NCBI GenBank assembly: GCA_001800285.1 | Contig: MGVC01000014.1 | Span: 1,756 to 65,755, forward strand | Direction: 5' to 3' | Length of the DNA: 64,000 nt | Source: Elusimicrobia bacterium RIFOXYA2_FULL_39_19 | GTDB lineage: Bacteria; Elusimicrobiota; Endomicrobiia; CG1-02-37-114; XYA2-FULL-39-19 | Shown here: positions 15,901 to 28,171 of the stretch, in pieces | How the letters are laid out: every line of letters starts with the position of its first letter | Position numbering within the stretch: position 1 is the first letter of the stretch | Translations under genes and position numbers: made by a program | Notes under the pieces: generated by a model | What the model was told of the DNA's origin: nothing | What the model saw: only the letters and a program-made list of their open reading frames with translations | Database searches by the model: none

Positions 15901-18900
15901 GAGCCAGTTTATTCTTAAAGCCTGGGATGTTATATTGCTTGCCGGACTTGGCGGCATACCGGGCACTGAGCAAAGAGTAGCTGTTGAAACCAGGTTAACC
16001 CAGCCCGTTTCTGTGTTTTCCAGGTTTCTTGCCTTGATGCGGAAATAATACTGGGTGTTTGGTACAAGAGTATTAGAAACTGTCCAGAATCCTGCGCCTG
16101 CTACCCAGCCGGTATTAACAGTGGCAGGTTGAAACCCGTATGAAACGGATGAACATTCCACGTAGTATTCTGTATACGGCGGGTTTGCACCGGTGGACCA
16201 ATAAACTGCCATGCTTGATACATAAACATTTGAAAATGAATAAACCGGCTGTTGCGCGTTAGTCCAGACAACTGATGAGCCCGATGAAGTTACCACACCG
16301 CCGGCATTTACCGCTGTTACATAGCACTGCCAGGAAGTATTGGGTGTAATATTTGTCTGTACCCAGCTTCCGTTAGAGCCGGTACCGCCTACTGCAGAAA
16401 TTGTATTTGTATCTGCAAGCATTATATAAGGAACAGAAGTGGCTGAATAAACCCTGAAACCAAGTTCGTTTGATGCATTATCTGTCCACTGCCAGGTGAT
16501 TGATGATGTATTAACCGCTGAAGCAATAAAGTTTACCGGTGATTGTACTTTTCCGCGCGCATTGCCGCCCATTGGGGCCGCCAGGCTTGCGCCTGTCCAA
16601 TGCGCCGCTTTAAGGTCAGAGTTGGTTACATCCAGATAAACTATATGCGCATCGCCATTACCATCTATTGAAAGCGAAGTATACTGCCCCGCATCATTTA
16701 ATGAATCAACCGTTGATATATCCCACTGTGATCCTGTAAATCTGGCAAACTTTAAATTACCTATACTGCTTTCATAATAGGCAATGACCGGGTTTTCAGA
16801 ACCGTCTAATGCAATAGATATATAACCGCCTACGTTTGAAGAATCAACAGTTGACACTGTCCAGGTACTGCCGGTGAATCTTGCATATTTGAGGTCATAA
16901 TTCACTGAATCCCAGTAAGCGATATGCGGATCACCTGAACCGCCTATTGCAAGAGCTGTGTATTGACCTACATTTCCATTGGCATCAATAGTGGAAGTGG
17001 ACCATTGCAAGCCATCATAGCTTGCATATTTCAGGTCACCGTCTGTTGAGAAGTAATGCGAAATATGGGCATTGCCCTGGGCATCAATTGCCAGGGAGCT
17101 ATTTGTACCGCAACTGTGTAAAGAATCTGCCGTGTGCGTTGACCAGTTTACACCATCGTATTTTGCAAATTTAAGATATTGGAAACCTACATAATCATGC
17201 CAGTATGAAATATTGGGGTTACCCTTTGGGTCAATGGCTATAGATGTCTGAGCACCGTTTATGTCCATAGAATCAATGGTATAAGTTGACCAGGCAACAC
17301 CATTATACTTTGCGTATTTCAAATCAAAATTGTCATCATCAACATAAGAGACATGCGGGTTATTATTAACATCAACGGCAATAGAAAAATAACTCTTTGA
17401 CATGCCCGGGTCAATTTCTACAGAGCCTCCCCAGGAAATACCGGTACGTTTATTATAAAACAGGGAGCCGGCAATATTTCTATAAACTGCGTGTATGTTA
17501 TTGCTTTTGTCAATTGCCTGAGACACGTACTGTCCCAGGGTTTGGCCGGCGCCGTCTACCGTCTCAAAAGTAAACGGTGAATTATATGCGTTTGGGGAAG
17601 AAGAAATCACAGACCAGTTGTTTGATTCATCTTTGGTCCAGACTCTGAAATAATATTCCGCATTAAGAGGAAGCGCTACGCTTACAGTAACTCTGGTGCC
17701 AGGGGTAACCGCTGAGGTTGAAAGAGAAACAGCAACAGAAGTTGACCAGGTTACGCCGGTCCAGGTGGAATATTGGATTCTGTATTCAGACCCTGAAGCC
17801 AGAGTATTAGAATACCCGTTATCCCCTGGTGTCATCCAGGAAAGTTTTATTGTATTGGCTGTACCGCTCTGGTATGCTTCCAGTGTTGTTATCTGACCGG
17901 GGGCCTGCGTATCTATATAAACGGTATATTTCACAGACGATATCTCTTCGTTGCCTATATCATCTGTGCCGAAAACATAAATTAAGTTTTCATTATCAGA
18001 CTGCCAGTCTACATTTTCAGATGATTTCCAAACGGTGTAATTGGGCTGGGCCGGATTGTCGGGTATACAGTCGCGCGTAGAAACCGTAACTATCCAGCTA
18101 ACCCCGTTCCAGTATTTATTTGTGGTATTATCAAAAATTACCATTTTCACAGAACCGGATTTTGCAAGGGAGGTTGATACGCCCACCATGTAGGCACCCG
18201 CAGTTATATCTGCCACGGTACCGCTGATAGTTGGCAGTGAATTTAAATAAGTGCCTGTAGGGAATGTCACAAAAGTTTCCGGAGCTTCGTTATCATAAAT
18301 GAAAGTATTTGAAGAAGTGCCGGCTGTAAAAACTGTCTGGTCATTTTCTGCATTATCTATTGCCATTGCAATGATGGTATATTCACTGCCGGTAGTTTTA
18401 TTTGCGTCACTAAAATTATAGGACCAGCTGGAACCCGCCAGTGAGAAATTAACTGGCTCTCCTGCAGTGGAGGTAGTAAGCCATATTTCCGCACCCCACC
18501 CGCTGCCTGTCCAGAACTGGCCGTCACTTCTTCTGATTTTTAAGTTTACAGTAGAAACCGTACCGGGTGATTTATCATTAAACGTTCCGGTGATTGATGC
18601 CAACTGTCCGCCCTTGTATGGCTGGGAATTCACAGGTATAGCAATAGTGGCCGTAGGCTTGGTAACATCGTAATAGAATGACGAAACCGGAGAAGTATCG
18701 CCATTATTGTTTGCCGCATCTATGGCACGAACAGCCAACTGTATCTGATGACCTTCGGGCCAGGTAATGCCGGAAGCATCATAAGTCCAAATTTCGTTGG
18801 TTGAGTTAAAGGTACCATCTTGCGCAGAAACATAAACCCAGGTAGAAAAATCAACCCAGGCAGAACCATTATAATAGGTAGCAGGATACACCAAGTCTTT

Positions 18901-21900
18901 TATTTCAAGCAGAACATCCTGAATTCTTACGTTATCAATAGAAGTTCCTGTTATGGAAGTAAGGGCTTTATAGGAAGCAGAATTTGCCGGATAGCTTACC
19001 AGAGCTATAGGCGTGCTGATATCAAACACAAAATTTGCAGTGGCATAAACGGTTGAATAATTGCTGGAACTATCTTTTGACCTGGCAACAGCCTGATAAC
19101 TAAAACCGCTTTCAAAAGAAATTACTGAACTATTAAAATCCCAGGCGCTATACGGCTGATTTACGTTATACCAGTTTGAACCAGAAGCGAAAGACGAACC
19201 ATTCCATTCATAACCATCTGCAACACGTACAAATTTAATTTCTGTCTGAGTTACAAGCACATTATCCTGCGCCTGGCCCTGGGTAGAGTTTAATTCTTTT
19301 GTGTAAGAATTATTTGCCGGCGTAGATATTGAAATTGTTGGCGGGGTAAGGTCTTTCTGGGTTTTTGTAGAAGTTGTTACTGAAAATACCGAATCAATGG
19401 AAACACCATTTTTAGCCCTGCCTCTAAAGTAATAATTAGTATCGCCGTCTAAACCATTAAACGTTGTAGTATTACCTGTAAAATTCAGGCCAAACGGTAT
19501 GGGCGTGGATATGTCATTAACAAAATTATCTGATGAAAAAGATATTTCATAAGGAGTTCCATCAGGATTACTATTTTTGCTCCAAGTAAAAGTAATTGAA
19601 GAAAATCCTATATAATTCCAAATCATTGCATCTAAATCCGGGGGGTTGGCAAGTGTATATTGTCCGTTTGAAGGAGCATCTTTTGTACCTAACGGATTGT
19701 ATGTCTGAACATATCTTGAATATGTAGTATTTGGCATGAGATTGGACTCAATAAAATATGTTGTGTTGGATTGAACTGTTCCAATAATACCGCCTGTAGA
19801 AGCAAATACTTTATAGAGCTGCTCATCATCTGCCATGTCAGTCCAGCCCCATTCAATTGAAGCAGCAGATTTTGCGGTTCCCATAAAACCAGCCGCTTGT
19901 GCAAGGATATCATGAATCCAAAACGTTACATTGTTAGGATCTTTTTCATAAGCTATGCCGAAATGCCCGCCGGCAGAATAGGGCATGGCTACATAACCCG
20001 GATATACAAGATTCGGCACATAAACATTTGAGCTTACTGTTGCATCAAAACTGAAATTCGGGAATGTATAGTTAGAAGTGCCGTTTTGCAGCAGAGTCAA
20101 TGCTGATTTGCCGTATTCGCAATTGGTGAATGTTACTGAACTAAAGGCCTGCAGGAAAGAACCGTCAGCTACCGTTATTCCCCTGGAATGGTCCAAGCTT
20201 AAAGCGGTTATGTTAACAGAACCGCCGTTTACGTCAAAGTTAAAATAATTTGTTGAAGCGGTGGAGGTGATAACATCAAGCAATGAATCCGTTTTTACTA
20301 AACCGCCGGGGTACACTGTCAACCCGTCGCCAAGTTCCACAATGCCGGAATTGGAATTTGTCATATCCAGCACACCGCTGTCATTTATATTTACCGGGCC
20401 TACTGCATTGAAAGTTCCTGTTTTTACGTTAAAATTACTGTTTATGTTGCTATATTGAATAACAGTGAGCTTATTGTTGAGCTCAATTTTACCGGAATTA
20501 AACTGAAAATATTTATTAGCCTTTACCGGTTGATTTATTACCAGTTCCTGGCCGGTATTTTTATTTACCTGCACTGAATCAAATACAATGGTTTTTATAC
20601 CGTTAACAGCTGAACTGCTTCCGGCAAACACAAAGGTAGAACCATAAACCGTAAAATCACCGTTTGTATCTAAAGAAACATTGCCGTTTGAAAGGGTTAC
20701 TTTTTTATTGGCAAAATCAAACCAGCCGGTGGTAACCAAAAGCTCTCCTGTAATTTCCAGGTCATTAACTGTGGATACGGCCCAGGTGGAAAGCGACTTA
20801 TTTATATACAGTGATTTTATAGAATAATTAGCGGGCAAATTAAGGCTGACATTATTTTCGTTAATAAAACAGAGGTTCTGGACGTTTAAAACACCCGGAT
20901 TTATCAAGGTAATATTTCCATCAACATTGGTGTTGTTTGAAGTCTGGCGGAAAACGCCGTTTGAAACTGTCAGACTGCCTGTAATATTAATATCCGAAAG
21001 GATAGTTACCGTGCTTTGGTTTACTTTATTTATTTCCAGATTTGAAAAAGTATTAGAGGAATTATTAATTGTCTGATTTCCATTTTTATCTAATATCCAG
21101 GTTCCATTATTTGCAAAAACACCATTCCCCCCTGAATTATTGATATCTCCCCTGAAACTTATAGTTGAGCCGTTTGTGTTTAACCAGCCATAATAAAAAT
21201 TCAGGTTTCCGTTAATTTGAATACGTTTATCCTGTAAAAAAACATTTCTCGTATTAGAAACATCATTGTCAATAAATAAACTATAAAAAGTTGTTCCGGG
21301 CAGGACATTTATGTTTTGATTGTAGAAACTCTTATTTGAAAAGCAGATAGTACTGGTATTTGCCGAAAACATTCCTGCGGTATAGGTTAAATTGCCCTTA
21401 ACTGTTATACTGCTGGCATTTATATTAAAAATTCCGGTACTGATATTTAAGTCATCAATTATGATATTTGTATTTATGTTAACATTTGATGAATAGCCGT
21501 CCTGAATAGAAAATGTGGAAAAGGCAACATTTGAAGGCAAGTCCCAGTCACAATATTTGGTTGGATTAATTGAACCAAAGATTACCGAATCCCCTGATGA
21601 AGGAACTATATCACCTACCCAGTTTAAATTATTGCTTGCAAAATTATCCGCCCCGCCCCCATCCCAGGTATGAACTGTCATATCGGCAGTATAAGTAGTA
21701 GCCGAATTTGAAAGTTCTGACCAATTACCGGCTTTATCCTGGGTCCAGGCTCTGAGATAATATGTAGTTTTTTCAAGCAGATTTGTTACTCTCCAAATCT
21801 GAGGTTCCCCAAAACTTACATTTGCAGTAGATATGGTTATCTGGGCGCTTGTTACGCTCCAGGTTAGGTTTGCGGTATAACTTGCATGCTGAATATTGAA

Positions 21901-24480
21901 CTGGCCGTGAGGGATTGTTTTATTTAACCCGTTATCGCCTTTTGAGGACCACCACAGGGTCATCTGGCCGGGTATTGAGTTGTCAATAACGCTTAAATTA
22001 TCAATCGGCGCAGGAGCTATGTTATCCAACAGGTAGATACTTGGCGTGGCGGTAGCGACAGTATAAATATCATTGCCATTTTTTGAAACTACCGTAATCC
22101 AGTAAGTAGTATCAGAGAAAAGATTTTCAACGGTTGTAAACCCGCCTGTTGCCCATACGGTGGTAGTGAGGTCTACCTGAAAGTTATCTGATGAAACTGA
22201 AATCCTGTACTGAGTATAGGTTGAATTGTTGTTTGTACCCCAACCTACAGACAAGCTCCAGGAAGTAGCATTAATGGCATATGTGCCGGTAGCCGGGTTT
22301 GCCAGAGTATATTTTACAACAGGGGTGCAGGATGATGTACCAATGGGGTTGTACGCTTCAGCGTATCTATAATAGGAAGTGTTAGGTGACAGACTGGCTT
22401 CCAGATAATCAGTTACATTGGCCCCAAGCACACCAAAAAGGCCGCCGGTTGAATTCTTAATTCTATAACCTAATTCTTCGTTTGAGTTATCTATCCAGCT
22501 CCAGTTTATGGCACAGGTTGAAAGTACCAATCCGTTAAAACTTCCTACTGCAGTAGGGGAGGACCAGAAAATTACATTATTAGGGTCGTATTCAAATGCC
22601 GGGCCTGATTTGGGGCCTGCGGCAAACTGCATGGCAATATAACCGGGATAAAACAAATTAGGAGCAGATACGTTTGTTGATATGGATGCATCAAAATAAA
22701 GATTATCAAATGTATATTGAGTTGTACCGCTTTGTAAAATCTGTAAAGCTATTGCGCTATTCTGGAAATTTTGAAAAGCAACTGTACTTAATTTTTGTAT
22801 ATAAGAACCATTTTCAATAACTAATCCCTGATCATTAAGCCCTTCAAGTGTTAAACCTGAAACATTCACGCTGCCGCCGGCTATTACAAACATAATGTAT
22901 TCACCGGTTGTTGAAGAACGGATTACATCTCCCGTTGTATTGGCTGTAACTCCTGCGCCGGTACTTATAATAATTGAACCTGCCACCCTAATAGTACTGT
23001 TATCAGCGTTTCCAAGATCCAATGATCCGCCGTCATAAAACTTCATCTGCCTCCAGATTGTTACGGTGGCAAGCTGTACATCAAATCTGCCGGAAGCATT
23101 CATGTCTTGTTCAACAGTAAGACGGGCGCCGCCGTTAGTAAAATACAGATATGAACCTTTATCCATAGTCAAAGTCTTTTTTACTCTTACCGGTATGCCC
23201 TGTATATACCCGCTTCCCCCGGGATAATTCACAATCCTGAAAGTATCAAGCGTAAGCTGCCCGGTACCGTACATCTGGGAAGCACCTGTGTTATTGGGAA
23301 TTACAACAGTTGAGCCGTCAACCAGGAAAGAACCGTAATTTGTGTTGTTCAAACCATGCATTTTCAGGAGCTTGTTCTGAATATCAAAAACAGCCGATCC
23401 GCCGCCAAAGAATGAGCAACTTCCAGTGATGCTCAAGCTTGGCTTTGCTATGTTTATGATGCCTACGGTCTTATTAGACAGGTAAAGACCCGGCAGAGTA
23501 GTTTCCTCAGGAACATCTATCACAACGTCGTTCCCTGAATCTGATAAAGAAATAGTGCCGTTAGCATAATTAAGCATTGCCCCGGGGTAAACAGTGATAT
23601 TACCGCCAATGGCCGGATTACCGGAACTTGACCACCTATACACACCGCTTTTCACAGTCAGGTCATTTTGTATGCTGAAACCCCAGTTATATGCGTTAAA
23701 TGTACTCATGTTAACCTTATTTATTTCCAAATTATACACATTGCTCGCCGGGCCTCCGCTGTCTGCAATGAATTGTTCATCTGTCCCGTCAATGATAACC
23801 TTGGAATTTGTGTTACTTTCGTCAAAAGTACCGTACCAGCTGCTAAAATCACCTCTGATGTATATAGTTGAACCAGAGATGTTGAAACGTCCATCTCCAC
23901 CCTGGCCTGATATATAACCGCTGTGTCTCATATTTGTAAGGAACAAATAATTGTTATTAAAATAAAGCTTAGCGCCTGTTTTTTTGATGTGAGATATGCA
24001 GTAGAACGTTGTTCCGGGAAGAAGGTACATATACTGGTGGTTGGTCCAGTGGGTGAAAGCGATGGTACTTGTATTTGCTGTGAACTGGCCGCCATTATAC
24101 TTCATGTCACCCAGTATCGAAACGCTGGTGGTAAGCACGTTAAAATTACCGCCGGAAATTGTAAGGTTATTATCTATTGTTATAGTTGTTGAAATATCAA
24201 CATTTGCCAAATAATCAGAATATATATTAAAACTACCAATTCTGACTGTATATGGTATATCCCAGGTACACGGTTTTGAAGGGTTAATGTTTGTGAAGGT
24301 TATATTATCTCCTGGGTTTATAGGATTGTCTGCAACCCAGTTAAACTGGTCAGAAGCAAGATTGCTGGCGCCGCCGCCATCCCATACTTTGTCTTCTGCT
24401 AAAACAGGGATAATAGAAGAAATAACCAATAGGGTGGTTGAAATGATGAATGTTATGAAGAATTTTTTTATGTTTACCAT
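3910..24480 (-). CDS. Giant (~6,857 aa) secreted cell-surface repeat protein (adhesin-like). It carries a T9SS-type C-terminal sorting domain (TIGR04183 / Por_Secre_tail-like).
   Basis: A single uninterrupted 20.6-kb ORF. I placed the start at the ATG at 24478-24480, where a signal peptide begins (MVNIKKFFITFIISTTLLVISSIIPVLA). The track's TTG at 24501 is an alternative start. It has two duplicated ~900-aa N-terminal modules that each begin WDGGG. It has dozens of ~90-100-aa FN3-like repeats (..NTTYYFRV.A.N..G..). The C-terminus (..KVYTIAGELVKTI..VWNCRNDAGDLAASGVYLFILEV..KFAIIK) matches the T9SS CTD seen on the S8 protease at 31634..33193. Confidence 0.85.
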   Translation of the reverse strand: MVNIKKFFITFIISTTLLVISSIIPVLAEDKVWDGGGASNLASDQFNWVADNPINPGDNITFTNINPSKPCTWDIPYTVRIGSFNIYSDYLANVDISTTITIDNNLTISGGNFNVLTTSVSILGDMKYNGGQFTANTSTIAFTHWTNHQYMYLLPGTTFYCISHIKKTGAKLYFNNNYLFLTNMRHSGYISGQGGDGRFNISGSTIYIRGDFSSWYGTFDESNTNSKVIIDGTDEQFIADSGGPASNVYNLEINKVNMSTFNAYNWGFSIQNDLTVKSGVYRWSSSGNPAIGGNITVYPGAMLNYANGTISLSDSGNDVVIDVPEETTLPGLYLSNKTVGIINIAKPSLSITGSCSFFGGGSAVFDIQNKLLKMHGLNNTNYGSFLVDGSTVVIPNNTGASQMYGTGQLTLDTFRIVNYPGGSGYIQGIPVRVKKTLTMDKGSYLYFTNGGARLTVEQDMNASGRFDVQLATVTIWRQMKFYDGGSLDLGNADNSTIRVAGSIIISTGAGVTANTTGDVIRSSTTGEYIMFVIAGGSVNVSGLTLEGLNDQGLVIENGSYIQKLSTVAFQNFQNSAIALQILQSGTTQYTFDNLYFDASISTNVSAPNLFYPGYIAMQFAAGPKSGPAFEYDPNNVIFWSSPTAVGSFNGLVLSTCAINWSWIDNSNEELGYRIKNSTGGLFGVLGANVTDYLEASLSPNTSYYRYAEAYNPIGTSSCTPVVKYTLANPATGTYAINATSWSLSVGWGTNNNSTYTQYRISVSSDNFQVDLTTTVWATGGFTTVENLFSDTTYWITVVSKNGNDIYTVATATPSIYLLDNIAPAPIDNLSVIDNSIPGQMTLWWSSKGDNGLNKTIPHGQFNIQHASYTANLTWSVTSAQITISTANVSFGEPQIWRVTNLLEKTTYYLRAWTQDKAGNWSELSNSATTYTADMTVHTWDGGGADNFASNNLNWVGDIVPSSGDSVIFGSINPTKYCDWDLPSNVAFSTFSIQDGYSSNVNINTNIIIDDLNISTGIFNINASSITVKGNLTYTAGMFSANTSTICFSNKSFYNQNINVLPGTTFYSLFIDNDVSNTRNVFLQDKRIQINGNLNFYYGWLNTNGSTISFRGDINNSGGNGVFANNGTWILDKNGNQTINNSSNTFSNLEINKVNQSTVTILSDINITGSLTVSNGVFRQTSNNTNVDGNITLINPGVLNVQNLCFINENNVSLNLPANYSIKSLYINKSLSTWAVSTVNDLEITGELLVTTGWFDFANKKVTLSNGNVSLDTNGDFTVYGSTFVFAGSSSAVNGIKTIVFDSVQVNKNTGQELVINQPVKANKYFQFNSGKIELNNKLTVIQYSNINSNFNVKTGTFNAVGPVNINDSGVLDMTNSNSGIVELGDGLTVYPGGLVKTDSLLDVITSTASTNYFNFDVNGGSVNITALSLDHSRGITVADGSFLQAFSSVTFTNCEYGKSALTLLQNGTSNYTFPNFSFDATVSSNVYVPNLVYPGYVAMPYSAGGHFGIAYEKDPNNVTFWIHDILAQAAGFMGTAKSAASIEWGWTDMADDEQLYKVFASTGGIIGTVQSNTTYFIESNLMPNTTYSRYVQTYNPLGTKDAPSNGQYTLANPPDLDAMIWNYIGFSSITFTWSKNSNPDGTPYEISFSSDNFVNDISTPIPFGLNFTGNTTTFNGLDGDTNYYFRGRAKNGVSIDSVFSVTTSTKTQKDLTPPTISISTPANNSYTKELNSTQGQAQDNVLVTQTEIKFVRVADGYEWNGSSFASGSNWYNVNQPYSAWDFNSSVISFESGFSYQAVARSKDSSSNYSTVYATANFVFDISTPIALVSYPANSASYKALTSITGTSIDNVRIQDVLLEIKDLVYPATYYNGSAWVDFSTWVYVSAQDGTFNSTNEIWTYDASGITWPEGHQIQLAVRAIDAANNNGDTSPVSSFYYDVTKPTATIAIPVNSQPYKGGQLASITGTFNDKSPGTVSTVNLKIRRSDGQFWTGSGWGAEIWLTTSTAGEPVNFSLAGSSWSYNFSDANKTTGSEYTIIAMAIDNAENDQTVFTAGTSSNTFIYDNEAPETFVTFPTGTYLNSLPTISGTVADITAGAYMVGVSTSLAKSGSVKMVIFDNTTNKYWNGVSWIVTVSTRDCIPDNPAQPNYTVWKSSENVDWQSDNENLIYVFGTDDIGNEEISSVKYTVYIDTQAPGQITTLEAYQSGTANTIKLSWMTPGDNGYSNTLASGSEYRIQYSTWTGVTWSTSVAVSLSTSAVTPGTRVTVSVALPLNAEYYFRVWTKDESNNWSVISSSPNAYNSPFTFETVDGAGQTLGQYVSQAIDKSNNIHAVYRNIAGSLFYNKRTGISWGGSVEIDPGMSKSYFSIAVDVNNNPHVSYVDDDNFDLKYAKYNGVAWSTYTIDSMDINGAQTSIAIDPKGNPNISYWHDYVGFQYLKFAKYDGVNWSTHTADSLHSCGTNSSLAIDAQGNAHISHYFSTDGDLKYASYDGLQWSTSTIDANGNVGQYTALAIGGSGDPHIAYWDSVNYDLKYARFTGSTWTVSTVDSSNVGGYISIALDGSENPVIAYYESSIGNLKFARFTGSQWDISTVDSLNDAGQYTSLSIDGNGDAHIVYLDVTNSDLKAAHWTGASLAAPMGGNARGKVQSPVNFIASAVNTSSITWQWTDNASNELGFRVYSATSVPYIMLADTNTISAVGGTGSNGSWVQTNITPNTSWQCYVTAVNAGGVVTSSGSSVVWTNAQQPVYSFSNVYVSSMAVYWSTGANPPYTEYYVECSSVSYGFQPATVNTGWVAGAGFWTVSNTLVPNTQYYFRIKARNLENTETGWVNLVSTATLCSVPGMPPSPASNITSQALRINWLTGTPANPGWSNYLAECSSISIGGPVVISSITKNNYADFAALSPNVTYYFQVKAVSVDNMSTVDTPLGSTHTLCNVPGLYGITDITTGTIMLNWTTNSNPAGTSYLAETSSESIGGPYNYSSAWQNTTYYMFTGLNINTTYWFRISAKNYDNVLTTYTFVWTGVTLCETPTSANWSLTTDVQHNINWNGDASGNPSSTIYIIQVATAANFSTISKEGETTRSVLGWGVGALTPNTTYYGRLIARNRAGVEAIYNIPNSSATVCQQPDNIVWGTAASNSMIVDFSADATANPADTIYTAVLSSSTDFSTIKTQEGTKASSTLNVTGLLINTTYYGKLIATNRMGTMVENTFDSGNGKATLCEAPNGLAWGSSGATSLRVNWTDTTGNPDNTVYIVTIGTSSDISTVVTSSSAFRSGGGNGSTLLVNNILPNTSYYAKVTAYNRASVGNSTDVGTLRVTDAMPPDITSYGTVTNNSIIVNWGTGESPANPDNTQYILQASTDESFSFLSSPEIVRLRSDLNVTIPSLNPNTTYFVRLIARNWAGSAVLSQLPQTWKATLCTAPDAASYGTISTGTIGLNWGTSEVPANPDNTIYLVQTATSTNFSTITKQYSGLRLDLAGTVTALTENTTYFIRLVARNREANEQYYSVAGQNWKATYTQQPAGSFTYLVINSDYISISQTDTSSNPDDTLYSIEASTAADFSTVTASTGTKASGTIVVTNLVPDTTYFMQVRAINREGIPSNTTNVASGNSAVSACETPDVANWSGVSAISIQINWTGDTTNNQDDTVYIGRISTSSDMSSYQEKTGIKSDNFVSFNGLTANTSYYGKLYARNHAGSEKSIDVYSGIPKPTLCSMPGGAGWGSNSSIDTLEIVWSDVANPPDTVFITEVSTSSDFSTNYSSITVNYLSTTTITGLTVNTTYYGRVTAVNREGQQSSPSDISTPKPTLANPATGSYLNNVTTFSIVVNWYKNGNPDYTRYGIIRSTDNFTTSNITVINESANWNTNSYTDSSLQIDTSYFYKICAYNESGIITAYDITVSTLTIPLAPDAPAGISAIATVNSIQWNWTKGTNADGHRVKSSGDDVNLSGDLAQNVTYWDQTGFTANISTSIYIESFNVMGSSASGSYSKYTLADMPNPISFGSIGTDNIQVDFGSDNNSAGTFYCVEVSTMVDYSWGIIYENVWTANVVHNTLNPDTSYYYRIRARNGDNVYSNYAANIDTATAVNVPGTLNVVSIGISSAGVSWGQSNQVWTEYEVFASTGDNLSYGLISSGIGAGPVTHNTLDPNTTYYYQVRAKNVRGGYSTFNSEVSTVTYCSQPASVTYGTVTSTTMQVSWGASTPDNPSDTTYQLKVSSTPDFITVYTSETVRSAGNAEITGLSPNTTYYVIVAAINRFHIKNSVQPSPDWKATNCNTPVNIIWSYQSLDSLDIDWWSDSSGNPADTTYIPQISTATDFTTIVISSQTTKETGAVTLDSLTANTTYYGRLIARNRELEDAVYTLPVTSVTYCAVPAGVTYGPGDTYLDINWSDTTNNPENTVYIAQISLANDFSSIDGSSFTNIQNGTANISPLIPNTTYYGRLIARNHAGKDEIYNLGVKVTNAELANNINWTGITPTSLQLDWSGDTATNPANTVYTAVVSTSSSMSAPYFTSSTVKGAGNAVVANLTPNTTYYGRIWAVNWENSTGVASPAPVANITYANQPLSTYIDNITSSTLRINWLKNSNPDYTRYGILRSVDNFTSTTTIKTFTDSLQVNNYIDTGLSSGNTYYYKVCAYNETGTPTIFDTTASSYTSNAPDYVAPTVGVTKPSLAFYSALASITGTADDNIEVSTVQVRIIRLSDNNEWNGSTFTAGPAWNGVTVFTNPTWTYNPVPAWVSDSSYTVIAKSQDSSTNWSDIYSTFTFTYDNTNTSVPSLLTPTDTSAVNLGNVSFDWSDSSDIAGIAEYELLVSTSADFGAISYSSVPAISAVTLLNMGSKGYFWKVRSKDSLSNYSAFSSTFSLLVDTVPPVNLTFDTNNIYVTSITVLQANLSANDELLGLAGTPYYLQLSTDNITWGNFNEGWTSSATFTTLTPNTTYWLRVKVKDSLSNETQYTSSIAKLTFAQPPVSSYLNAVTSTTITVNWSDNTNPGYTKFALERSTDNFATSVTLLNFASNWVTYSYADSLLLSDSSYYYRVSAYNETGAVTVPDVVVSTRTKMGSLDAPAGLTGTALSTNIIMWNWNTVSFADGYRIRSFTGDANLSGDLSASTTWWNQQGLSANISTNVYVESFNAEGSAPSGPQLKYALATVPGFAVFSSVGNNYIQADWTQNGNANGTDYVVECSSVSTAGPVFVSSDTKNIYAEFWNLDPNTTYYFQVMARNGNSIDSQYIDLTTKVTLCNTPNSTGYGTVLSNSIEIIWVASVPDNPADTPYVVQAATSSDFSTITSQQSRLRSDASGTLGSLNPNTTYYIRILAGNRVGLQTVGYAAQPWNATLPESPNGLNWGTVTQSSLIADWSSDATSNPADTRYVFEVSSQAAFSSIQGSSESVKSDTAQKQIINLTPNTTYYGRVTVISRTAASVSSGLPAYNMTLANFPSGSYVNNVTSYSITVNWSNNQNPSYTKYGILRSSDSVWATTVTVRDFSNGLTGTNYTDTGLTIYTTYYYKVCAYSENSQPTNFDSVISTLTILPAPLAPTLSGTPLSTNSIQWSWVPGTFAFGHRVRSDADNANLSGDLAASVTYWIMTGLSVNSSSNVYVQAYNPSGTANSTALTKYSMAEVPGSAAMVMVGLSSTTITWGDTNPAGTNYQVARATDTSFATTTLGTLTAGTTSTITTLTQGTTYYIKVRAQNTDSIFTNFNSTISIITDRVPNGPPTAVNLIYPVASTVVTTLNPYFNWTAATDPEADPVSYEVQYTTDSGFGGYSFVSGITGTTGYTLATPLMDNASYYWRIRSYATGGSTLSSTSTFMGAFTVDTVPNAPAAFNLLSPADGVINGTTTITLDWQDSSDADLGASLTYSIYYSTYITFANTMTVTGLVPSIYNFAFLSDNTYYWKVAAVDNSGLTTFSSQEIKFVIDTADKVSPAAITTLSANTGDSEGEILLSWNSTGDDDVSGIFNGAFRIAYATSASVGWAYTNAQITISTAGISSGTTMAYKLAGLYPDATYYFRIWAVDDYGNYSDISNAATTYARNLAPAAPASLQLTVQPEGGQLNLSWLTSSEPDIKAYKLYRSIASGNLASKSYIATILNPSVSYQDKSVANNTTYYYQLTAIDNTNYESSASSEVNGCPVMLFTAGSVHITFSEYNQYYSTITRFEASETWVGAVSVSTGYKEGSSALLLTSMNSAVVASTFNFVTGMTYSKLNDSDGLSLWINVDDQNNLSYIKLVFGYTADFANRIEYTINNLTTGWNKVNITRADGAKAGTFFWNNVVAVHIDAVSMPGKTASVIVDDLRMVSGVNTTGGIWQQNSGVWALEEGSAGNTVYSQQDTRAGNKVSLLTTRTYTDFTYYTKMKMVEGLDAGVVFRADGTQGYKFSNEGSTFTFTLKTLSGTQLSQGTYNISNGTWYYVKVYTSGTTKRVYMSADGVTYTLVCEETVSNDYTGGYVGLYANATYAQFDDVHIMFNPASLAVTASDKQAVLTWTMSNTVSFSKYFVYRSSVSADGTQNAYEKIRTVTVAGITDTDNLENGVTYYYKVTAVDTADYESGHIGPEKALPYEIIAPDTILGKVTQKDGTPLSTIPCEALLNDTVVKKVYTYTDGTYNFTGLTENTTYIIRVSLYEGEKVSLVYREVKTGTKSVNFTLEIDYELATISGQMAGYKATGKLSAMSAAKFSDYKFRAKALVPGNGIGYVEIYHLKDGPGTTLRIPIDNSGKYEIPNLLPGKYVVKGYNGVVYSTMKVLDVKEGQRVSITLSFQGILDGKTISYPNPSTIGSLTLKYYTGYNVPESQIKVYTIAGELVKTINDAEIDVIIETNANRKYVWNCRNDAGDLAASGVYLFILEVKDNANGEKARFIGKFAIIK

Positions 24481-24697: not shown

Positions 24698-25567
24698 TTA
24701 CTGAGAAAGAAATGATTTTAATTCGTCGTCTTTGGGGTTTAGCTTAAAAGCTTCGCGCCAAACTTGTATGGCTTTTGATTTTTTATTAAGTGCATAATAA
24801 GCCGACCCTAAACGTTTCATGGCCATAGCATTGGATGGTTCAAGTTCTAAAACACTATTGCATTCTACTATAGCTCTGTCATATTTAGCATCGTAAATAT
24901 AATTTAATGAAGCTACTAATTTCTGTTCTACCAGGGTCATTCCTGGCACAACCTCCACCGCTTTCAGCTGGTTGGGGTACTCTTCTTCAATCACGTTGAC
25001 AAATTTTTCAATCCTACCATCCGAAGGGTTTAACTGGCCTGCATAAATTATGGAATGCAGAGCAGTTTTAAACTTTGCGCTGGGTTTAATGTATTCCCTC
25101 ACAGCAAACCTTATTAATTTGCCGTTTTTTGTTTGAGCTGTTTCATCGCCGAAAGCTTCCTGGATTTTTCTTATTTTACCGTAAAGTTTTTTTAATTCCG
25201 TGTTATTTGGTGAGGTTTCCAGTGCGGTTTTCATATTGCTTAAAGCATCGGTATACCTGCCGGCATTGTAACTTTCCTCAACACTTTTTAGGACTTTGCT
25301 GTATTTTTCCATCAATTTCTGTTTGGCAAATTCTATAAGTTTCGGCGGCTGTACCTGTGTAGGGTCCAGTTTTAAAATCTGTTCCCAGTAAGAAATGGCT
25401 TTGCTGAAATCATTGGCCTGAAAGGACCTTATGGCAGTATCATAGTACGCTTTTATTAAACTCTGTTTTTCTTTTTCTGATAATACTTTTTCCTGCGCAA
25501 AAACATTTGCACCGGTAATTATCGGAATAAGCATAATTGCTAAAAATATTTTAGTTTTTCTTTTCAT
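24698..25567 (-). CDS. Periplasmic TPR-repeat protein with a signal peptide. It overlaps the upstream motB-like gene by 17 nt, which suggests translational coupling.
   Basis: 289 aa with an N-terminal signal peptide (MKRKTKIFLAIMLIPIITGANVFA). It has repeated TPR-like A..Y...G.Y..A helix pairs. Confidence 0.7.
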   Translation of the reverse strand: MKRKTKIFLAIMLIPIITGANVFAQEKVLSEKEKQSLIKAYYDTAIRSFQANDFSKAISYWEQILKLDPTQVQPPKLIEFAKQKLMEKYSKVLKSVEESYNAGRYTDALSNMKTALETSPNNTELKKLYGKIRKIQEAFGDETAQTKNGKLIRFAVREYIKPSAKFKTALHSIIYAGQLNPSDGRIEKFVNVIEEEYPNQLKAVEVVPGMTLVEQKLVASLNYIYDAKYDRAIVECNSVLELEPSNAMAMKRLGSAYYALNKKSKAIQVWREAFKLNPKDDELKSFLSQ

Positions 25568-26243
25568 CTTTTTTATCGCTTTTCCCCTGGCTTCTTAAAA
25601 TACTTATTTCAATTCTTCTATTTTTTGCGCGGCCTTCTTCCGTATCATTGGATTCCAAAGGATGAAACTCGCCGTAACCATAAACAGTAAAACGTTTTGA
25701 ATCTATTTTTTCTTCGTCCATAAGATATTTTATTACGCTAAAAGCCCGGGCTGCGGATAATTCCCAGTTTGAATCATACTTTCCCACTCCGGCTCTTACC
25801 GGAATGTTGTCCGTATAACCTTCTACTACAATATTATTCGGCATGTCCTTTATAATTTTCGCTATGCCTGACAAACTTTTTGCCGCTTCCGGTTTTAAAG
25901 CCGCTTCACCTGAATTATAAAGCACGGGTGCCGGCAGGGATATTTTTATTCTTTGAGAATTAATTTCTATTCTTGCAGTATCCTGCAGTTCGGATGACAA
26001 TTTATTTGCTGCGTCCGATTCTTTTGATTTCTGGCTGGCATCTTCATCTACCTTGCCACCCATGGCTGACTGTACGTTTGAAAGCAGTTTTTCTGACTCC
26101 AGACCCCCCATTGCTGATACGGAGTATAACAATAGGAAGAAGATCATTAAAGTAGTTATCAGGTCAGCATAAGGGACAACCCAACTGGATGGGTCATAAA
26201 GTGCCCTTTTATCTACCTTACCGCCAATATCTCCACCAGACAT
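25551..26243 (-). CDS. motB: MotB/OmpA-family stator protein, paralog 1. It has a single TM with the conserved Asp and a C-terminal peptidoglycan-binding OmpA-like domain.
   Basis: N-terminus ..VVPYADLITTLMIFFLLLY matches the MotB TM/plug region with the essential Asp. The C-terminus ..VVEGYTDNIPV..SNWELSAARA..NRRIEISIL matches the OmpA/MotB peptidoglycan-binding domain. A GAGG Shine-Dalgarno sits 11 nt upstream of the ATG. Confidence 0.8.
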   Translation of the reverse strand: MSGGDIGGKVDKRALYDPSSWVVPYADLITTLMIFFLLLYSVSAMGGLESEKLLSNVQSAMGGKVDEDASQKSKESDAANKLSSELQDTARIEINSQRIKISLPAPVLYNSGEAALKPEAAKSLSGIAKIIKDMPNNIVVEGYTDNIPVRAGVGKYDSNWELSAARAFSVIKYLMDEEKIDSKRFTVYGYGEFHPLESNDTEEGRAKNRRIEISILRSQGKSDKKDEKKN

Positions 26244-26247
26244 AAAT

Positions 26248-26552
26248 AAAACCTCAAGTTTTATTTACCCAGACGCTTTGGTTTTTTAAGCCGCATGGTG
26301 CGGATGAAAAACCAGTCAGGGTATAAAACCTCAATTTCCTTTACCCAGACGTTTTGGTTTTTTAAGCCGCATGGTGCGGATGAAAAACCAGTCAGGGCAT
26401 AAAACCTCAATTTCCTTTACCCAGACGTTTTGGTTTTTTAAGCCGCATGGTGCGGATGAAAAACCAGTCAGGGTATAAAACCTCAATTTCCTTTACCCAA
26501 ACGTTTTGGTTTTTTAAGCCGCATGGTGCGGATGAAAAACCAGTCAGGGTCA
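26248..26552. repeat. Tandem array of four ~76-77-bp direct repeats (>90% identical). Each unit contains an imperfect hairpin: ggtttttt-aag-CCGCA-tgg-TGCGG-atg-aaaaacc.
   Basis: Units begin at 26248, 26325, 26401 and 26477. They are contiguous with no unique spacers. They lie in the 400-bp gap between the two motB paralogs. Unit 1 supplies the Shine-Dalgarno/leader of motB paralog 1. Confidence 0.85.
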
Positions 26553-26573
26553 TAATTTCAAAAAGTGATTAAG

Positions 26574-26640
26574 TGATTAGGTTGTTAAGTGGTTAGTAAA
26601 TTATTTTAACTAAACACTAACCACTTAATCACTATTCACT
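26574..26640. repeat. Imperfect palindrome. The core is a 13-bp perfect inverted repeat, ttaagtggttagt (26586-26598) and actaaccacttaa (26616-26628), with flanking gtgatta direct repeats.
   Basis: Seen directly in the sequence. It lies immediately 3' of the motB paralog 2 stop and 5' of the tandem repeat array. Confidence 0.6.
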
Positions 26641-26645
26641 ATTTT

Positions 26646-27305
26646 TTATCTAATTACATTTATTTCAATTCTTCTGTTTTGTGCCCTGTTTTCGGGTGTA
26701 TCGTTCGGGTAAAGGGGCCTGAACTCGCCATACCCTGCCACTATAAACTTTTCTGACGACATTCCCTTTACTTTGGTAAAATAGTCAATTACACTTACAG
26801 CCCGGGCAATAGACAATTCCCAGTTGGTTGTATATCTCCCCGCTTTTAACGGTATATTATCAGTATGCCCTTCAACAACAACTTTATTGGGCAGTGCTTT
26901 CAGAGACTTGGCTATTTCATCTAATCCCAACGCTGTTTCTTTAGTAATTTCTACTTTACCTGTTTCAAAAAGCACAGGAGAAGTAAGCAGGATACGTATC
27001 ATTTTATCATTAACTTCAAGTTTTGCCAGTTTATCCAGTTTTTCTTTTTCTGAATCCAGCTTGCTTACCGCTTCCTGTTCCTGAATCTGCTTTAAAATTC
27101 TTTGGGCGCGGTCCGTCATGGCGGCATCCTTGCTTACCATGCTGGTTAGGGCAGACTGAATATTAGTTCTTTTGCTTTCATCCATACGGGTAAAAGCATA
27201 GGACATTAGAAAGAACAAAGTCAGGTTTGTAATAATATCCGCATATATTGTCAGCCAGATGGAACTTTGCTGCATTATTCTTACCGGCCGTTTACGTTTT
27301 TTCAT
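26646..27305 (-). CDS. motB: MotB/OmpA-family stator protein, paralog 2.
   Basis: N-terminus ..SSIWLTIYADIITNLTLFFL is a MotB-type TM with the conserved Asp. The C-terminus ..VVEGHTDNIPLKAG..TNWELSIARA..NRRIEINVIR is the OmpA-like domain. Confidence 0.8.
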   Translation of the reverse strand: MKKRKRPVRIMQQSSIWLTIYADIITNLTLFFLMSYAFTRMDESKRTNIQSALTSMVSKDAAMTDRAQRILKQIQEQEAVSKLDSEKEKLDKLAKLEVNDKMIRILLTSPVLFETGKVEITKETALGLDEIAKSLKALPNKVVVEGHTDNIPLKAGRYTTNWELSIARAVSVIDYFTKVKGMSSEKFIVAGYGEFRPLYPNDTPENRAQNRRIEINVIR

Positions 27306-27369
27306 GATTAACGAACAATGTTAGGGGATTAATTTATTGTTTATGGGCAAATAAGTTTGCCCTTATATT

Positions 27370-28149
27370 TTATAACTTGCTGTTAGCCAGCGACTGTTCT
27401 CTTAAGATTGCAGATAAATAACCCTCAAGTTTTTTTGCCGTTATTACAGGCACATCACCTTTATGAATTGAAACAATGCCTTCAGTAATGAGTTCCATGT
27501 TAAGAATTTCATCTTCACTGTATTCAGACAGTTTTACAGCAACGGGTAAAAAAGCAAAATTAGCGGCAAATATGCCGAAAAATGTAGCAGCCACAGCTGT
27601 TGCCATAGCGGCACCCATGGAAGTAGGGTCGGTAATATTTCTTAATACCTGCACAACACCCAGCAGGGTTCCCAGCAATCCGAAAATAGGCGCTACAGTA
27701 GCCATCATTCTAAATACGCTGGCAACTTTCTGATGCCTTTCTCTTACGTACAAAATTTCTTTTTCCAGATTGTCTTCGATAATGTCTATATCGTAACCGT
27801 CTATGAGCATTTGCAGGGCATTTCTAAAGAACTTGTCTTTTAATCCGGCTACTTCAGGCTGGAGGCCGGAAAACCCTGAACGTTTGGATTTTTCTGAAAG
27901 GCCTACAACAAGTTCTATCATTCTCAAAGATGATTCTCTTTTATTTGGGAAGAAAGCCAGACTGAAAGCCTTAGGTATGGCTTTGATAGTTGTCCAGGGA
28001 TAAGCAATGAGAGTAGAGGAAAGAGTACCTATTACAACCAGCAGAAACGCATCAAGATTAAACAACATATGCACAATTTCACCGCGCGCCATGACTATGT
28101 AAATTGCAACTACTCCGATAATTGCTCCGCCAACCGTTAACAAATCCAT
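27370..28149 (-). CDS. motA: MotA/PomA-family proton-channel stator protein. It has four TM segments with a large cytoplasmic loop between TM2 and TM3.
   Basis: 259 aa. The TM1-TM2 pair sits at the N-terminus. A ~100-aa charged loop (..RESSLRMIELV..) follows. Conserved prolines are present in TM3 (TVAPIFGLLGT) and TM4 (AFLPVAV), as in MotA. A GGGGGA Shine-Dalgarno lies upstream. Confidence 0.85.
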   Translation of the reverse strand: MDLLTVGGAIIGVVAIYIVMARGEIVHMLFNLDAFLLVVIGTLSSTLIAYPWTTIKAIPKAFSLAFFPNKRESSLRMIELVVGLSEKSKRSGFSGLQPEVAGLKDKFFRNALQMLIDGYDIDIIEDNLEKEILYVRERHQKVASVFRMMATVAPIFGLLGTLLGVVQVLRNITDPTSMGAAMATAVAATFFGIFAANFAFLPVAVKLSEYSEDEILNMELITEGIVSIHKGDVPVITAKKLEGYLSAILREQSLANSKL

Positions 28150-28171
28150 TTATTTTCCCCCAAAAATATTT

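Follow-up and report, generated by a model that had tools for sequence, protein, structure and literature searches.

A giant surface protein secreted by a groundwater Elusimicrobiota bacterium begins with two paralogous modules, each made of a WDGGG head, a long beta-solenoid core and a tail of fibronectin type III (FN3) domains. We interpret these, with moderate confidence, as diverged G8-capped beta-helix plus FN3 cassettes that would serve as distal ligand-binding rods on a C-terminally anchored giant protein. The gene lies in the 64-kb stretch of DNA that was analysed (hereafter the window; Table 1), and Pfam scans of its product give FN3 matches over the full length of the open reading frame. 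Homologues have their overall architecture and C terminus in common with it. To our knowledge, Elusimicrobiota have hardly any cultured representatives and none of their surface proteins has been characterised, and a literature search on giant or beta-helix proteins of Elusimicrobia returned nothing specific beyond giant genes being common in the phylum.

Table 1. Features of the giant gene and its neighbours in the window (nt, window positions; aa, residues of the giant open reading frame).
Feature	nt	Strand	aa	Remarks
Conserved ~643-aa protein, start only	1-1119	-		runs off window
FecR-domain protein	1201-1929	-		downstream of giant gene
CarboxypepD_reg/CARDB protein	2202-3773	-		downstream of giant gene
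Giant ORF, 6,863 codons	3910-24501	-		20.6 kb; contains the entire 19250-24400 region
C-terminal sorting domain, T9SS type A	3913-4194	-	~6770-6863	TIGR04183
Module 2 with FN3 tail	19252-21681		941-1750
FN3 pair after module 2	19252-19905	-	~1533-1750	Pfam fn3 and FN3 alignments
Module 2 core	19906-21681	-	941-1532	order head / rungs / tail as in module 1
Module 1 with FN3 tail	21682-24396		36-940
Extra FN3, 'W..KGDNG' type	21682-21951	-	~851-940	directly upstream of module 2 head
FN3 pair after module 1	21952-22551	-	~651-850	aligns with FN3 pair of module 2
Module 1 core	22552-24396	-	36-650	head, narrow rungs, wider C-terminal rungs
Module 1 wider rungs			~517-646
Module 1 narrow beta-helix rungs			~91-515
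Module 1 head			~36-155
Predicted Sec-type signal peptide	24397-24480	-	8-35	MVNIKKFFITFIISTTLLVISSIIPVLA / EDK; from translation
Likely start ATG	24480	-	8	MVNIKK...; AGGA 13 nt upstream
TPR protein	24698-25567	-		upstream block, 24698-29608
MotB/OmpA, second	25551-26243	-		upstream block
MotB/OmpA, first	26646-27305	-		upstream block
MotA	27370-28149	-		upstream block
FliF/FliG-fusion	28172-29608	-		upstream block
UPF0164/FadL/PorV-like barrel gene	30710-31630			weak candidate

A BLASTP comparison of aa 1-940 with aa 941-1800 returned a single collinear alignment, 40-859 against 946-1749, at 35% identity over 839 columns (E = 6.7e-116, composition-based statistics). The cores alone (aa 36-660 against 941-1545) align at 36% identity over 616 columns (E = 5e-80), or 38% with MAFFT. 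Copy against copy gave a Smith-Waterman score of 1137, compared with 76 +/- 12 (maximum 120) for 200 shuffles (z = 85), and aligning core 1 with an FN3 stretch of similar composition from within this protein yielded only 54. Module 2 is matched by the family HMMs at both head (E = 3.6e-39) and tail (E = 1.2e-64), and no third copy of the module was found within the window. These alignments bear out the first-pass annotation, which had proposed two paralogous modules of head, long core and FN3 tail, and the paired strings on which it relied are all present: VWDGGG at aa 39 and HTWDGGG at aa 944, PNLFYPGY at aa 614 and PNLVYPGY at aa 1496, and DPNNVIFW at aa 639 and DPNNVTFW at aa 1521, the last pair belonging to the core ends YEYDPNNVIFW (module 1) and YEKDPNNVTFW (module 2). 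Its figures need adjustment: the identity put at ~40% measures about 35-38%, and the twin modules of supposedly ~900 aa are 905 and 810 aa long with cores of ~600 aa, a gap in length that is explained by the one extra FN3 (aa ~851-940) found after module 1 only.

The duplication had also been called ancient and no assembly artefact, with which we concur: at 35% identity to each other, the copies match other Elusimicrobiota proteins as closely or more closely, copies 1 and 2 being 40% and 39% identical to one relative (P0001), at least the identity between the partners themselves. The two copies would have originated by an old duplication or by insertion of a cassette, rather than in a recent event or an assembly error. 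An artefactual repeat, whether from assembly collapse or duplication or from a chance similarity of low-complexity Asn/Ser/Thr-rich sequence, might be suspected in a compositionally biased region taken from a metagenome assembly, but copies at 35% amino acid identity have DNA much too diverged for an assembly duplication, which excludes that route. The collinear 839-residue alignment stands far above its shuffles and withstands composition correction, and the module is present in independent genomes, in two or three copies in some. Judging from these sequence comparisons, we regard an artefact as vanishingly improbable and the idea as effectively refuted already. The compositional description given earlier is accurate, with G, S, N and T each making up 9-15% of the cores. 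An 'NxT periodicity' did not hold up: N-x-S/T is mildly enriched in the cores (z = 1.8 and 2.3) and equally so elsewhere in the protein (z = 3.1), and hydrophobic autocorrelation of the raw core sequence is weak, so that neither NxT sequons nor Asn ladders are supported as a periodicity visible in the sequence.

Structure prediction of one module, a check that had been proposed for the beta-helix claim, returned an all-beta core with a solenoid pattern. AlphaFold2 modelled the core of module 1 (pLDDT 83.8, pTM 0.72; pLDDT 93.9 for the C-terminal third in a tail-only model) with ~53 short four-residue strands and an autocorrelation peak at 21-22 residues. Foldseek lists (PDB, BFVD) consist of weak matches, almost all of them right-handed parallel beta-helix proteins, including SepA, EspC, Ag43, EtpA, PL6, PL3, tailspikes and 'parallel beta-helix repeat' proteins, and the best structural match of the tail is the PL3 lyase 3t9g (TM 0.54). 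No Foldseek match reached E <= 1e-3 and whole-core TM-scores were 0.2-0.3; the fold call therefore rests on the class of the matches together with the strand pattern. At the level of fold class, the model supports a beta-helix, and the class of the weak Foldseek matches suggests that it is probably of the right-handed parallel type. We considered whether the conserved tail, with its longer DSSP strands, might be a separate beta-sandwich cap, and rejected this, as the structures that resemble the tail-only model are beta-helix lyases and tailspikes.

The description 'pectate-lyase-like' is apt for the fold class and not for the sequence profile. The window protein has no match to Pfam Beta_helix (PF13229), NosD (PF05048) or Pectate_lyase_3 (PF12708) at E <= 0.01, Pfam profiles of PbH1 type found none among 10 module sequences at E <= 1, and nothing significant was returned by searches of the window cores against Pfam and NCBIfam or of core and tail profiles against PDB sequences. 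A profile-level link to beta-helix repeats likewise failed to appear when the tail profile was compared by hhalign with the canonical PbH1 repeats of a relative, P0004 (probability 0.9%). Each module would comprise a cap followed by ~19 narrow three-stranded rungs and then by ~5 wider, strongly conserved rungs, with Y-E-x-D-P-N-N-V-x-F-W as the putative closing motif; a rise of 4.8 Å per rung would give a rod length of some 11-12 nm. Conservation is 44-50% in the caps and 25-35% in the middle, where 36 of the 44 gap columns also fall, a contrast that would suit caps conserved for folding, with a surface between them that diversifies. In a tail alignment of 30 sequences, the residues conserved at 90% or more are limited to G, N, G, G and W.

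The head, whose putative cap motif W-D-G-G-G ... N-W ... P..GD.V.F would open each beta-helix, is, on profile evidence from relatives, probably a divergent G8/Amnionless-type N-terminal cap. Of 28 family heads, 14 match Amnionless, the best at E = 1.6e-5 and still short of that profile's cut-off, and 4 match G8, and in two relatives (P0016 and P0029) G8 scores 27.9 and 27.5 bits (cut-off 22.9) exactly at the head positions. The window's own module 1 head and whole module 2 core match neither profile at E <= 1, and the homology is thus transitive, through relatives, rather than direct. The TMEM2 crystal structure places the G8 domain as the first turns of a right-handed beta-helix (PMC10206443).

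The FN3 pairs that follow the two cores align with each other (36% identity over 181 aa, E = 2e-31) as well as with many downstream FN3 domains, and Pfam fn3 (PF00041) matches within aa 8-1800 at E = 3.9e-11, its best stretch being the module 2 tail. The extra FN3 has relatives elsewhere in the protein, at aa 5888-6031 and aa 2196-2306, and its type occurs within 30 aa upstream of 10 of the 234 confident heads in relatives, the top full-length matches among them.

An exhaustive profile search found 412 relatives of the module at E <= 1e-3, which public records name only 'fibronectin type III domain-containing' or 'hypothetical'; those carrying a source name are mostly Elusimicrobiota. Related loci were collected with a tail-only alignment. 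Close relatives are Elusimicrobiota proteins that end in the same C terminus as the window protein and hold one to three copies, and distant ones hold up to seven or eight, as in P0009, P0012 and P0016, where the head-rungs-tail unit is concatenated head to tail. Most relatives carry the module inside the protein and not at its N terminus, so a tip position is not required of it. Parts of the module also turn up in other settings: P0042 is an exoprotein in which a head and rungs of this type accompany a TPS domain (94.5 bits), P0004 has canonical PbH1 repeats and, ~170 residues later, a copy of the tail motif, and marginal matches to the head lie at residues 890-994 of RemA (E = 0.0023) and 646-768 of Mfa5 (E = 0.032), both of them T9SS adhesins. 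The cassette is probably a mobile unit from which giant secreted proteins are put together, mainly of Elusimicrobiota among source-named relatives. The family is uncurated and sizeable, and tipping a giant, FN3-rich surface protein with a beta-helix is in itself an ordinary, familiar bacterial design. Boundaries and anatomy are now defined for a ~600-aa cassette that escapes sequence searches of Pfam, NCBIfam and the PDB, and a curated profile would improve the annotation of several hundred proteins.

At the other end of the protein, TIGR04183 (T9SS type A) matches at 23.3 bits, a borderline score against its cut-off of 23 (E = 4.6e-5), and the C-terminal domains of PorU and PorZ match the same region (E = 2.4e-9 and 1.4e-5). 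The n-h-c pattern and a VLA motif indicate a Sec signal peptide at the N terminus, directly after which the first head begins, with no match to the TPS domain (PF05860) in aa 8-1800. Autotransporter, PATR and Pertactin profiles found no match across all 6,863 aa, nor did Pfam scans of the whole protein find an SprB repeat. Because a signal peptide stands at the N terminus and a T9SS-like sorting domain at the C terminus, the modules are probably at the cell-distal end. The UPF0164/FadL/PorV-like barrel gene, recognised through its homologue in a related locus (L012), is a candidate shuttle for the C-terminal domain, and PorV/FadL-like barrels adjoin genes that bear the same C-terminal domain as the giant protein. 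No core T9SS component (SprA/Sov, PorV, PorU, PorK-N or GldK-N) was identified within the window, and a literature search on T9SS in Elusimicrobia/Elusimicrobiota found no relevant report.

We infer that the C terminus anchors the protein to the cell surface, an arrangement in which ~5,000 residues of putative FN3, Ig and propeller-like spacer would hold two rigid rods at the far end. There the modules would most likely bind ligands, probably glycans or cell surfaces, a function that is plausible; head and rungs recur in a secreted TPS exoprotein (P0042), the head has its marginal matches in the adhesins RemA and Mfa5, and no conserved binding-site signature was identified in the modules. They might instead be enzymes, tailspike-like or lyase-like polysaccharide depolymerases (CASH beta-helix) that cut a substrate, prey or host-surface polymer, and their structural neighbours do include PL3 and PL6 lyases, pectin methylesterase, GH110, GH55 and phage tailspike depolymerases; however, they match no glycoside hydrolase, lyase or PbH1 profile, and the residues conserved across the family are mostly Gly, Asn, Trp and hydrophobics located in the caps. 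An active-site groove would be expected in the central rungs, which show the lowest conservation in the module and carry the most indels. In related phyla, giant proteins have been proposed to serve in degrading cell walls or carbohydrates, and G8-capped beta-helices are found in TMEM2 and CEMIP, which are linked to hyaluronan degradation, yet the purified TMEM2 ectodomain is reported to have shown no hyaluronidase activity (PMC10206443). We consider an enzymatic role unlikely.

Conservation concentrated in the caps would also suit modules that are purely structural, either rods that extend or stiffen the fibre or agents of Ag43-like cell-cell self-association, that recognise no particular ligand outside the cell. 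The top structural neighbours include Ag43 and further autotransporter beta-helices that self-associate, and seven- or eightfold concatenation in P0009, P0012 and P0016 resembles rod building. Such a role, to which we assign a low probability, leaves unexplained why two units should sit at one end of a protein that already has ~5,000 residues of FN3/Ig spacer, and the variable, indel-rich middle, as a weak and indirect argument, sits better with a surface being driven to diversify than with an inert rod. Ligand binding by distal rods is the reading we prefer, and the core boundaries provide concrete constructs (aa 36-650 and aa 941-1532) for assays of binding or activity.

A larger question raised by the twin-module protein is its recurrent neighbourhood with flagellar-type motor genes. 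The FliF/FliG-fusion-MotA-MotB block adjoins giant homologues in L012 and L015 as it does in the window, and the trio of CarboxypepD_reg/CARDB, FecR and ~643-aa proteins follows the giant gene in L012, L013, L015 and the window. An obligatory linkage of FliG/MotAB to the giant gene is ruled out by two further loci (L016 and L017), which have the motor block and no giant gene within 10 kb; one giant-gene cluster lacks the block. The recurring motor block, the conserved trio and the PorV/FadL-like barrels leave room for speculation that the giant protein is the working end of an undescribed Elusimicrobiota envelope machine with a membrane-anchored FliF/FliG-fusion 'rotor' and a MotA/MotB stator, a proposal that we rate as quite improbable; against it, the block occurs without a nearby giant gene and a giant cluster without the block. 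In such a machine, rotor and stator (MotB_plug plus OmpA) would together power movement, tensioning or secretion of a surface fibre with a T9SS-like C-terminal domain. A literature search on FliG/MotA in Elusimicrobia found nothing specific.

Compared with proteins of the TMEM2/CEMIP/PKHD1 type (G8, PF10162; Amnionless, PF14828), the modules have in common the motif W ... N-W ... P ... D-x-V-x-F/I-P, which in both appears to run directly into a right-handed beta-helix. The window helix is longer, at a predicted ~24 rungs, and ends in the family-specific motif Y-E-x-D-P-N-N-V-x-F-W, and it forms a repeated cassette in bacterial giant proteins, whereas the TMEM2 type is a single ectodomain. With the pectate-lyase superfamily (PbH1, CASH) and tailspikes the likeness is one of fold class, the best structural neighbours of the tail being the PL3 pectate lyase (TM 0.54), the Sf6 and P22 tailspikes, pectin methylesterase and PL6 lyases, but the window modules lack a Beta_helix, NosD or Pectate_lyase profile match or an identified catalytic signature.

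Type V adhesins (Ag43, SepA, EspC; FHA, EtpA) are secreted surface proteins with a long right-handed beta-helix, of the kind predicted here, and the top of the Foldseek PDB list for the whole core is taken by the Ag43, SepA, EspC and EtpA types. The window protein has no TPS domain, PATR repeats or C-terminal beta-barrel, ending instead in a T9SS-type domain, although its relative P0042 provides a link to the TpsA type through a genuine TPS secretion domain. SprB and RemA of Flavobacterium johnsoniae and Mfa5 of Porphyromonas gingivalis are also repetitive proteins of several thousand residues with a T9SS type A-like C-terminal domain, and the adjoining motor-type gene block adds to this likeness. 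The window protein differs from these Bacteroidota adhesins in phylum and in lacking SprB repeats, its head matches to RemA and Mfa5 are marginal, and its neighbourhood differs from the SprB system in having motor genes of MotAB/FliG rather than GldLM type and no identified T9SS core genes. The proposed envelope machine would be a counterpart of SprB and the GldLM motor that drives it, assembled from flagellar-type components.

Positions 19250-24400 make up the 5' quarter of one 20.6-kb minus-strand ORF (3910-24501, 6,863 codons) that likely starts at the ATG at 24480, with AGGA 13 nt upstream; the translation opens with a signal peptide typical of Sec export (MVNIKKFFITFIISTTLLVISSIIPVLA/EDK). 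The first-pass annotation had placed two tandem paralogous modules at the start of this giant protein, and they are clearly there: in a BLASTP comparison of aa 1-940 with aa 941-1800, run with composition-based statistics, aa 40-859 and 946-1749 form a single collinear alignment (35% identity, 839 columns, E = 6.7e-116), and the cores alone align at 36% identity (E = 5e-80). The Smith-Waterman score of the two copies is 1137 versus 76 +/- 12 for 200 shuffles (z = 85), whereas an FN3 stretch elsewhere in the protein, just as rich in Asn, Ser and Thr, gives core 1 a score of only 54. Neither chance nor composition comes close to explaining such similarity, and the repeat is confirmed. An artefact is excluded. 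The sequence strings quoted in that annotation all occur where it placed them; its identity of ~40% was somewhat high, the actual value between copies being 35-38%. The window contains no third copy.

Each copy comprises a ~600-aa core and then two FN3 domains, so that the proposed plan of WDGGG head, core and FN3 tail stands for both, with one additional FN3 in copy 1 (aa ~851-940) that accounts for the copies' different lengths (905 and 810 aa). The FN3 pairs align with each other (36% identity, E = 2e-31) and include a Pfam fn3 match. The extra domain is of a 'W..PGDxG' type; among 234 confident heads in relatives, FN3 domains like this one directly precede 10, top full-length matches included. 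The core had no match among Pfam, NCBIfam or PDB sequences, and domain matches in relatives divide it into a head, a middle of variable length and a tail, heads and tails each recurring independently and repeatedly across other large proteins. Identity between the window's copies is 44% in the head and 50% over the final ~100 alignment columns, versus 25-35% for the middle, where 36 of the 44 gap columns fall.

Features of the module, by profile position, and of the genes around the giant gene, by window position
Feature	Position	Strand	Description
Head	1-120 (profile)		W-D-G-G-G .. A-S ... N-W ..... P..G-D.V.F
Tail	445-625 (profile)		ends Y-E-x-D-P-N-N-V-x-F-W
Trio, conserved unknown (~643 aa)	1-1119	minus	start of gene, signal peptide; runs off window
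Trio, FecR-domain protein	1201-1929	minus	downstream of giant gene
Trio, CarboxypepD_reg/CARDB protein	2202-3773	minus	downstream of giant gene
Motor block, five genes	24698-29608	minus	directly upstream of giant gene; order: 478-aa FliF/FliG-fusion, MotA, two MotB_plug+OmpA proteins, TPR protein
Barrel homologue, 306 aa	30710-31630	minus	27% identity, E = 2e-25 to barrel candidate of locus L012; no Pfam match
S8 subtilase	31634-33193	minus	FlgD_ig/CHU_C/Por_Secre_tail-like C-terminal domain; followed by 306-aa protein gene

An exhaustive profile search with both window cores defined a family of 412 proteins at E <= 1e-3, 22 of them at E <= 1e-30. A word-indexed protein search with the 626-aa core returned no matches, though the same collection includes relatives at E = 1e-183; its pre-filter, limited to 8,000 candidates, seems to be saturated by Asn/Ser/Thr-rich queries of low complexity. 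The top relatives are proteins from MAGs of Elusimicrobiota or Endomicrobiia, deposited as 'fibronectin type III domain-containing', 'FG-GAP-like repeat-containing' or 'hypothetical', and farther members come from Kiritimatiellia and Auribacterota. Six relatives (P0002 to P0006 and P0015) share the giant protein's overall architecture and C-terminus. Most relatives carry the module internally (in one protein of 5,976 aa, for instance, at aa 2788-3395). Close relatives have one to three copies, and P0009, P0012, P0016 and similar proteins have head-to-tail series of seven or eight; 113 confident tails are followed by an FN3 pair in 25 cases and directly by the next head in 26. It is joined to a TPS secretion domain in P0042 and to a C25 peptidase in P0108. 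The module tree does not place the window's copies next to each other: copy 1 shares 40% identity with P0001_a, a module of another relative, and copy 2 39% with P0001_a and P0003, versus 35% between the copies. Such closeness to other proteins' modules puts the duplication, or cassette insertion, before the divergence of these lineages. Another module, at aa ~505-1180 of P0004 (locus L013), runs from a head-like start (WKSVQGGGWSNGAIW..) through canonical PbH1 repeats (Pfam NosD, Beta_helix) to a copy of the same tail motif, so the tail is also used in a module built on classical CASH-type repeats.

When 28 diverse heads were scanned against Pfam, Amnionless (PF14828) was matched in 14 (best E = 1.6e-5) and G8 (PF10162) in four (best E = 0.0032); the window's module 1 head had no match. 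In the distant relatives P0016 and P0029, G8 exceeds its gathering cut-off (27.9 and 27.5 versus 22.9 bits) and coincides exactly with the head HMM matches. In the TMEM2 crystal structure, the predicted G8 domain lies within a continuous right-handed parallel beta-helix (PMC10206443). Together these point to the head as a divergent G8/Amnionless-type N-terminal cap.

An AlphaFold2 model of the core (aa 36-661, 10-sequence module alignment; pLDDT 83.8, pTM 0.72) is 49% strand with 1% helix. The 53 strands within residues 56-480 have a mean length of 4 and a mean spacing of 8 residues, and their autocorrelation peaks at 21-22 residues, implying about 19 turns of three strands each. Foldseek of the whole core against PDB and BFVD returned nothing at E <= 1e-3, and its lists are almost all right-handed parallel beta-helices (SepA, EspC, Ag43, EtpA, IgA1 protease, PL6 lyases, tailspikes, 'parallel beta-helix repeat' phage proteins). 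The tail, modelled alone from 30 sequences (pLDDT 93.9, pTM 0.87), best matches the PL3 pectate lyase 3t9g (TM 0.54, probability 0.94, E = 0.26), followed by Sf6 and P22 tailspikes, pectin methylesterase and PL6. Its longer DSSP strands had raised the option of a separate beta-sandwich, against which these matches argue; the tail is better read as a continuation of the one helix, wider and at its C-terminal end. The right-handed beta-helix foreseen from the raw sequence is thus largely borne out by the all-beta model and the Foldseek lists. Its basis, an 'NxT periodicity', is invalid, the sequons being only slightly enriched, and to the same degree elsewhere in the protein.

Beyond aa 1750 the protein continues with Ig-like repeats, a stretch of propeller-like repeats, FN3 domains by the dozen, and CarboxypepD_reg domains. 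At aa ~2310-2790 (16132-17574) some 8-9 tandem ~50-aa repeats ('..G.P.I.Y.......LKYA...G..W....VDS.') resemble a beta-propeller; neither Pfam nor NCBIfam recognized anything there beyond one weak choice-of-anchor U match, and the region recurs in P0003 and P0006. Near the C-terminal CarboxypepD_reg domains, aa ~6299-6463 (5113-5607) weakly match a 3-keto-disaccharide hydrolase/LamG-like family (E = 0.0012, below cut-off). The C-terminal ~95 residues match TIGR04183, the sorting domain of T9SS type A, at threshold (23.3 bits versus cut-off 23, E = 4.6e-5), and the PorU and PorZ C-terminal domains as well. Given the Sec signal at the start of the protein and this domain at its end, the simplest topology would have the protein exported and attached via its C-terminus, with both beta-helices at the far end. 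No T9SS core genes were identified in the 64-kb window, and a literature search found no paper on T9SS in Elusimicrobiota.

The motor block is conserved in Elusimicrobiota, and its linkage to the giant gene is recurrent, not obligatory. At loci L012 and L015 in other genomes motor-block and trio genes flank giant homologues in permuted order, the trio following the giant gene at both; at L013 the trio follows a giant homologue without the motor block; L016 and L017 have the block and no giant gene within 10 kb; and at L018 the contig stops right after the TPR gene of the block. The membrane-anchored FliF/FliG-fusion has a signal/TM, a periplasmic part weakly matching FliF_C, a second TM, and FliG middle and C-terminal domains; an identical copy of this FliG-like gene lies on contigs ANAN16-1_SAMN03842446 and JGI 3300002146. 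The window's DNA stems from Rifle aquifer metagenomes. The window has no flagellar genes beyond the block, and we consider it doubtful that the giant protein is the working end of a surface-fibre machine powered by it. The trio protein at the window's edge is 32-34% identical to 643-aa proteins without a Pfam match. A UPF0164/FadL/PorV-like outer-membrane barrel candidate lies just upstream of the L012 giant gene. The S8 peptidase's C-terminal domain is of the same kind as the giant protein's, and the peptidase-barrel pairing recurs in L008 and L018; barrel genes beside proteins with such domains hint that sorting domains of this phylum may be handled in a PorV-like manner. Strand bias is extreme here, the minus strand carrying 35 of the 37 ORFs >= 150 aa that overlap 15000-64000; these ORFs include one for a DnaA-ATPase protein (38181-39875), and cumulative GC skew peaks at ~20-22 kb, within the giant gene.

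The binding role first proposed for the modules is plausible as a prediction, evenly balanced in our estimation, with glycans or cell surfaces as probable targets. It is favoured because conservation is concentrated at the caps, with a variable middle between them, because neither a catalytic family signature nor conserved charged residues turned up across the wider family, and because TPS-type and T9SS-type surface proteins use the same head and rungs. The fold neighbours are the one argument that the modules might instead be depolymerases, which that missing signature makes us think unlikely, and a purely structural or self-associating role also seems improbable. The head profile aligns marginally with two T9SS-dependent surface adhesins, RemA of Flavobacterium johnsoniae (residues 890-994, 8gl6_D; E = 0.0023) and, from Porphyromonas gingivalis, Mfa5 (E = 0.032). 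The cassette itself is uncurated and of a known kind, probably a right-handed beta-helix with a G8-type cap, set on a giant surface protein that is secreted.
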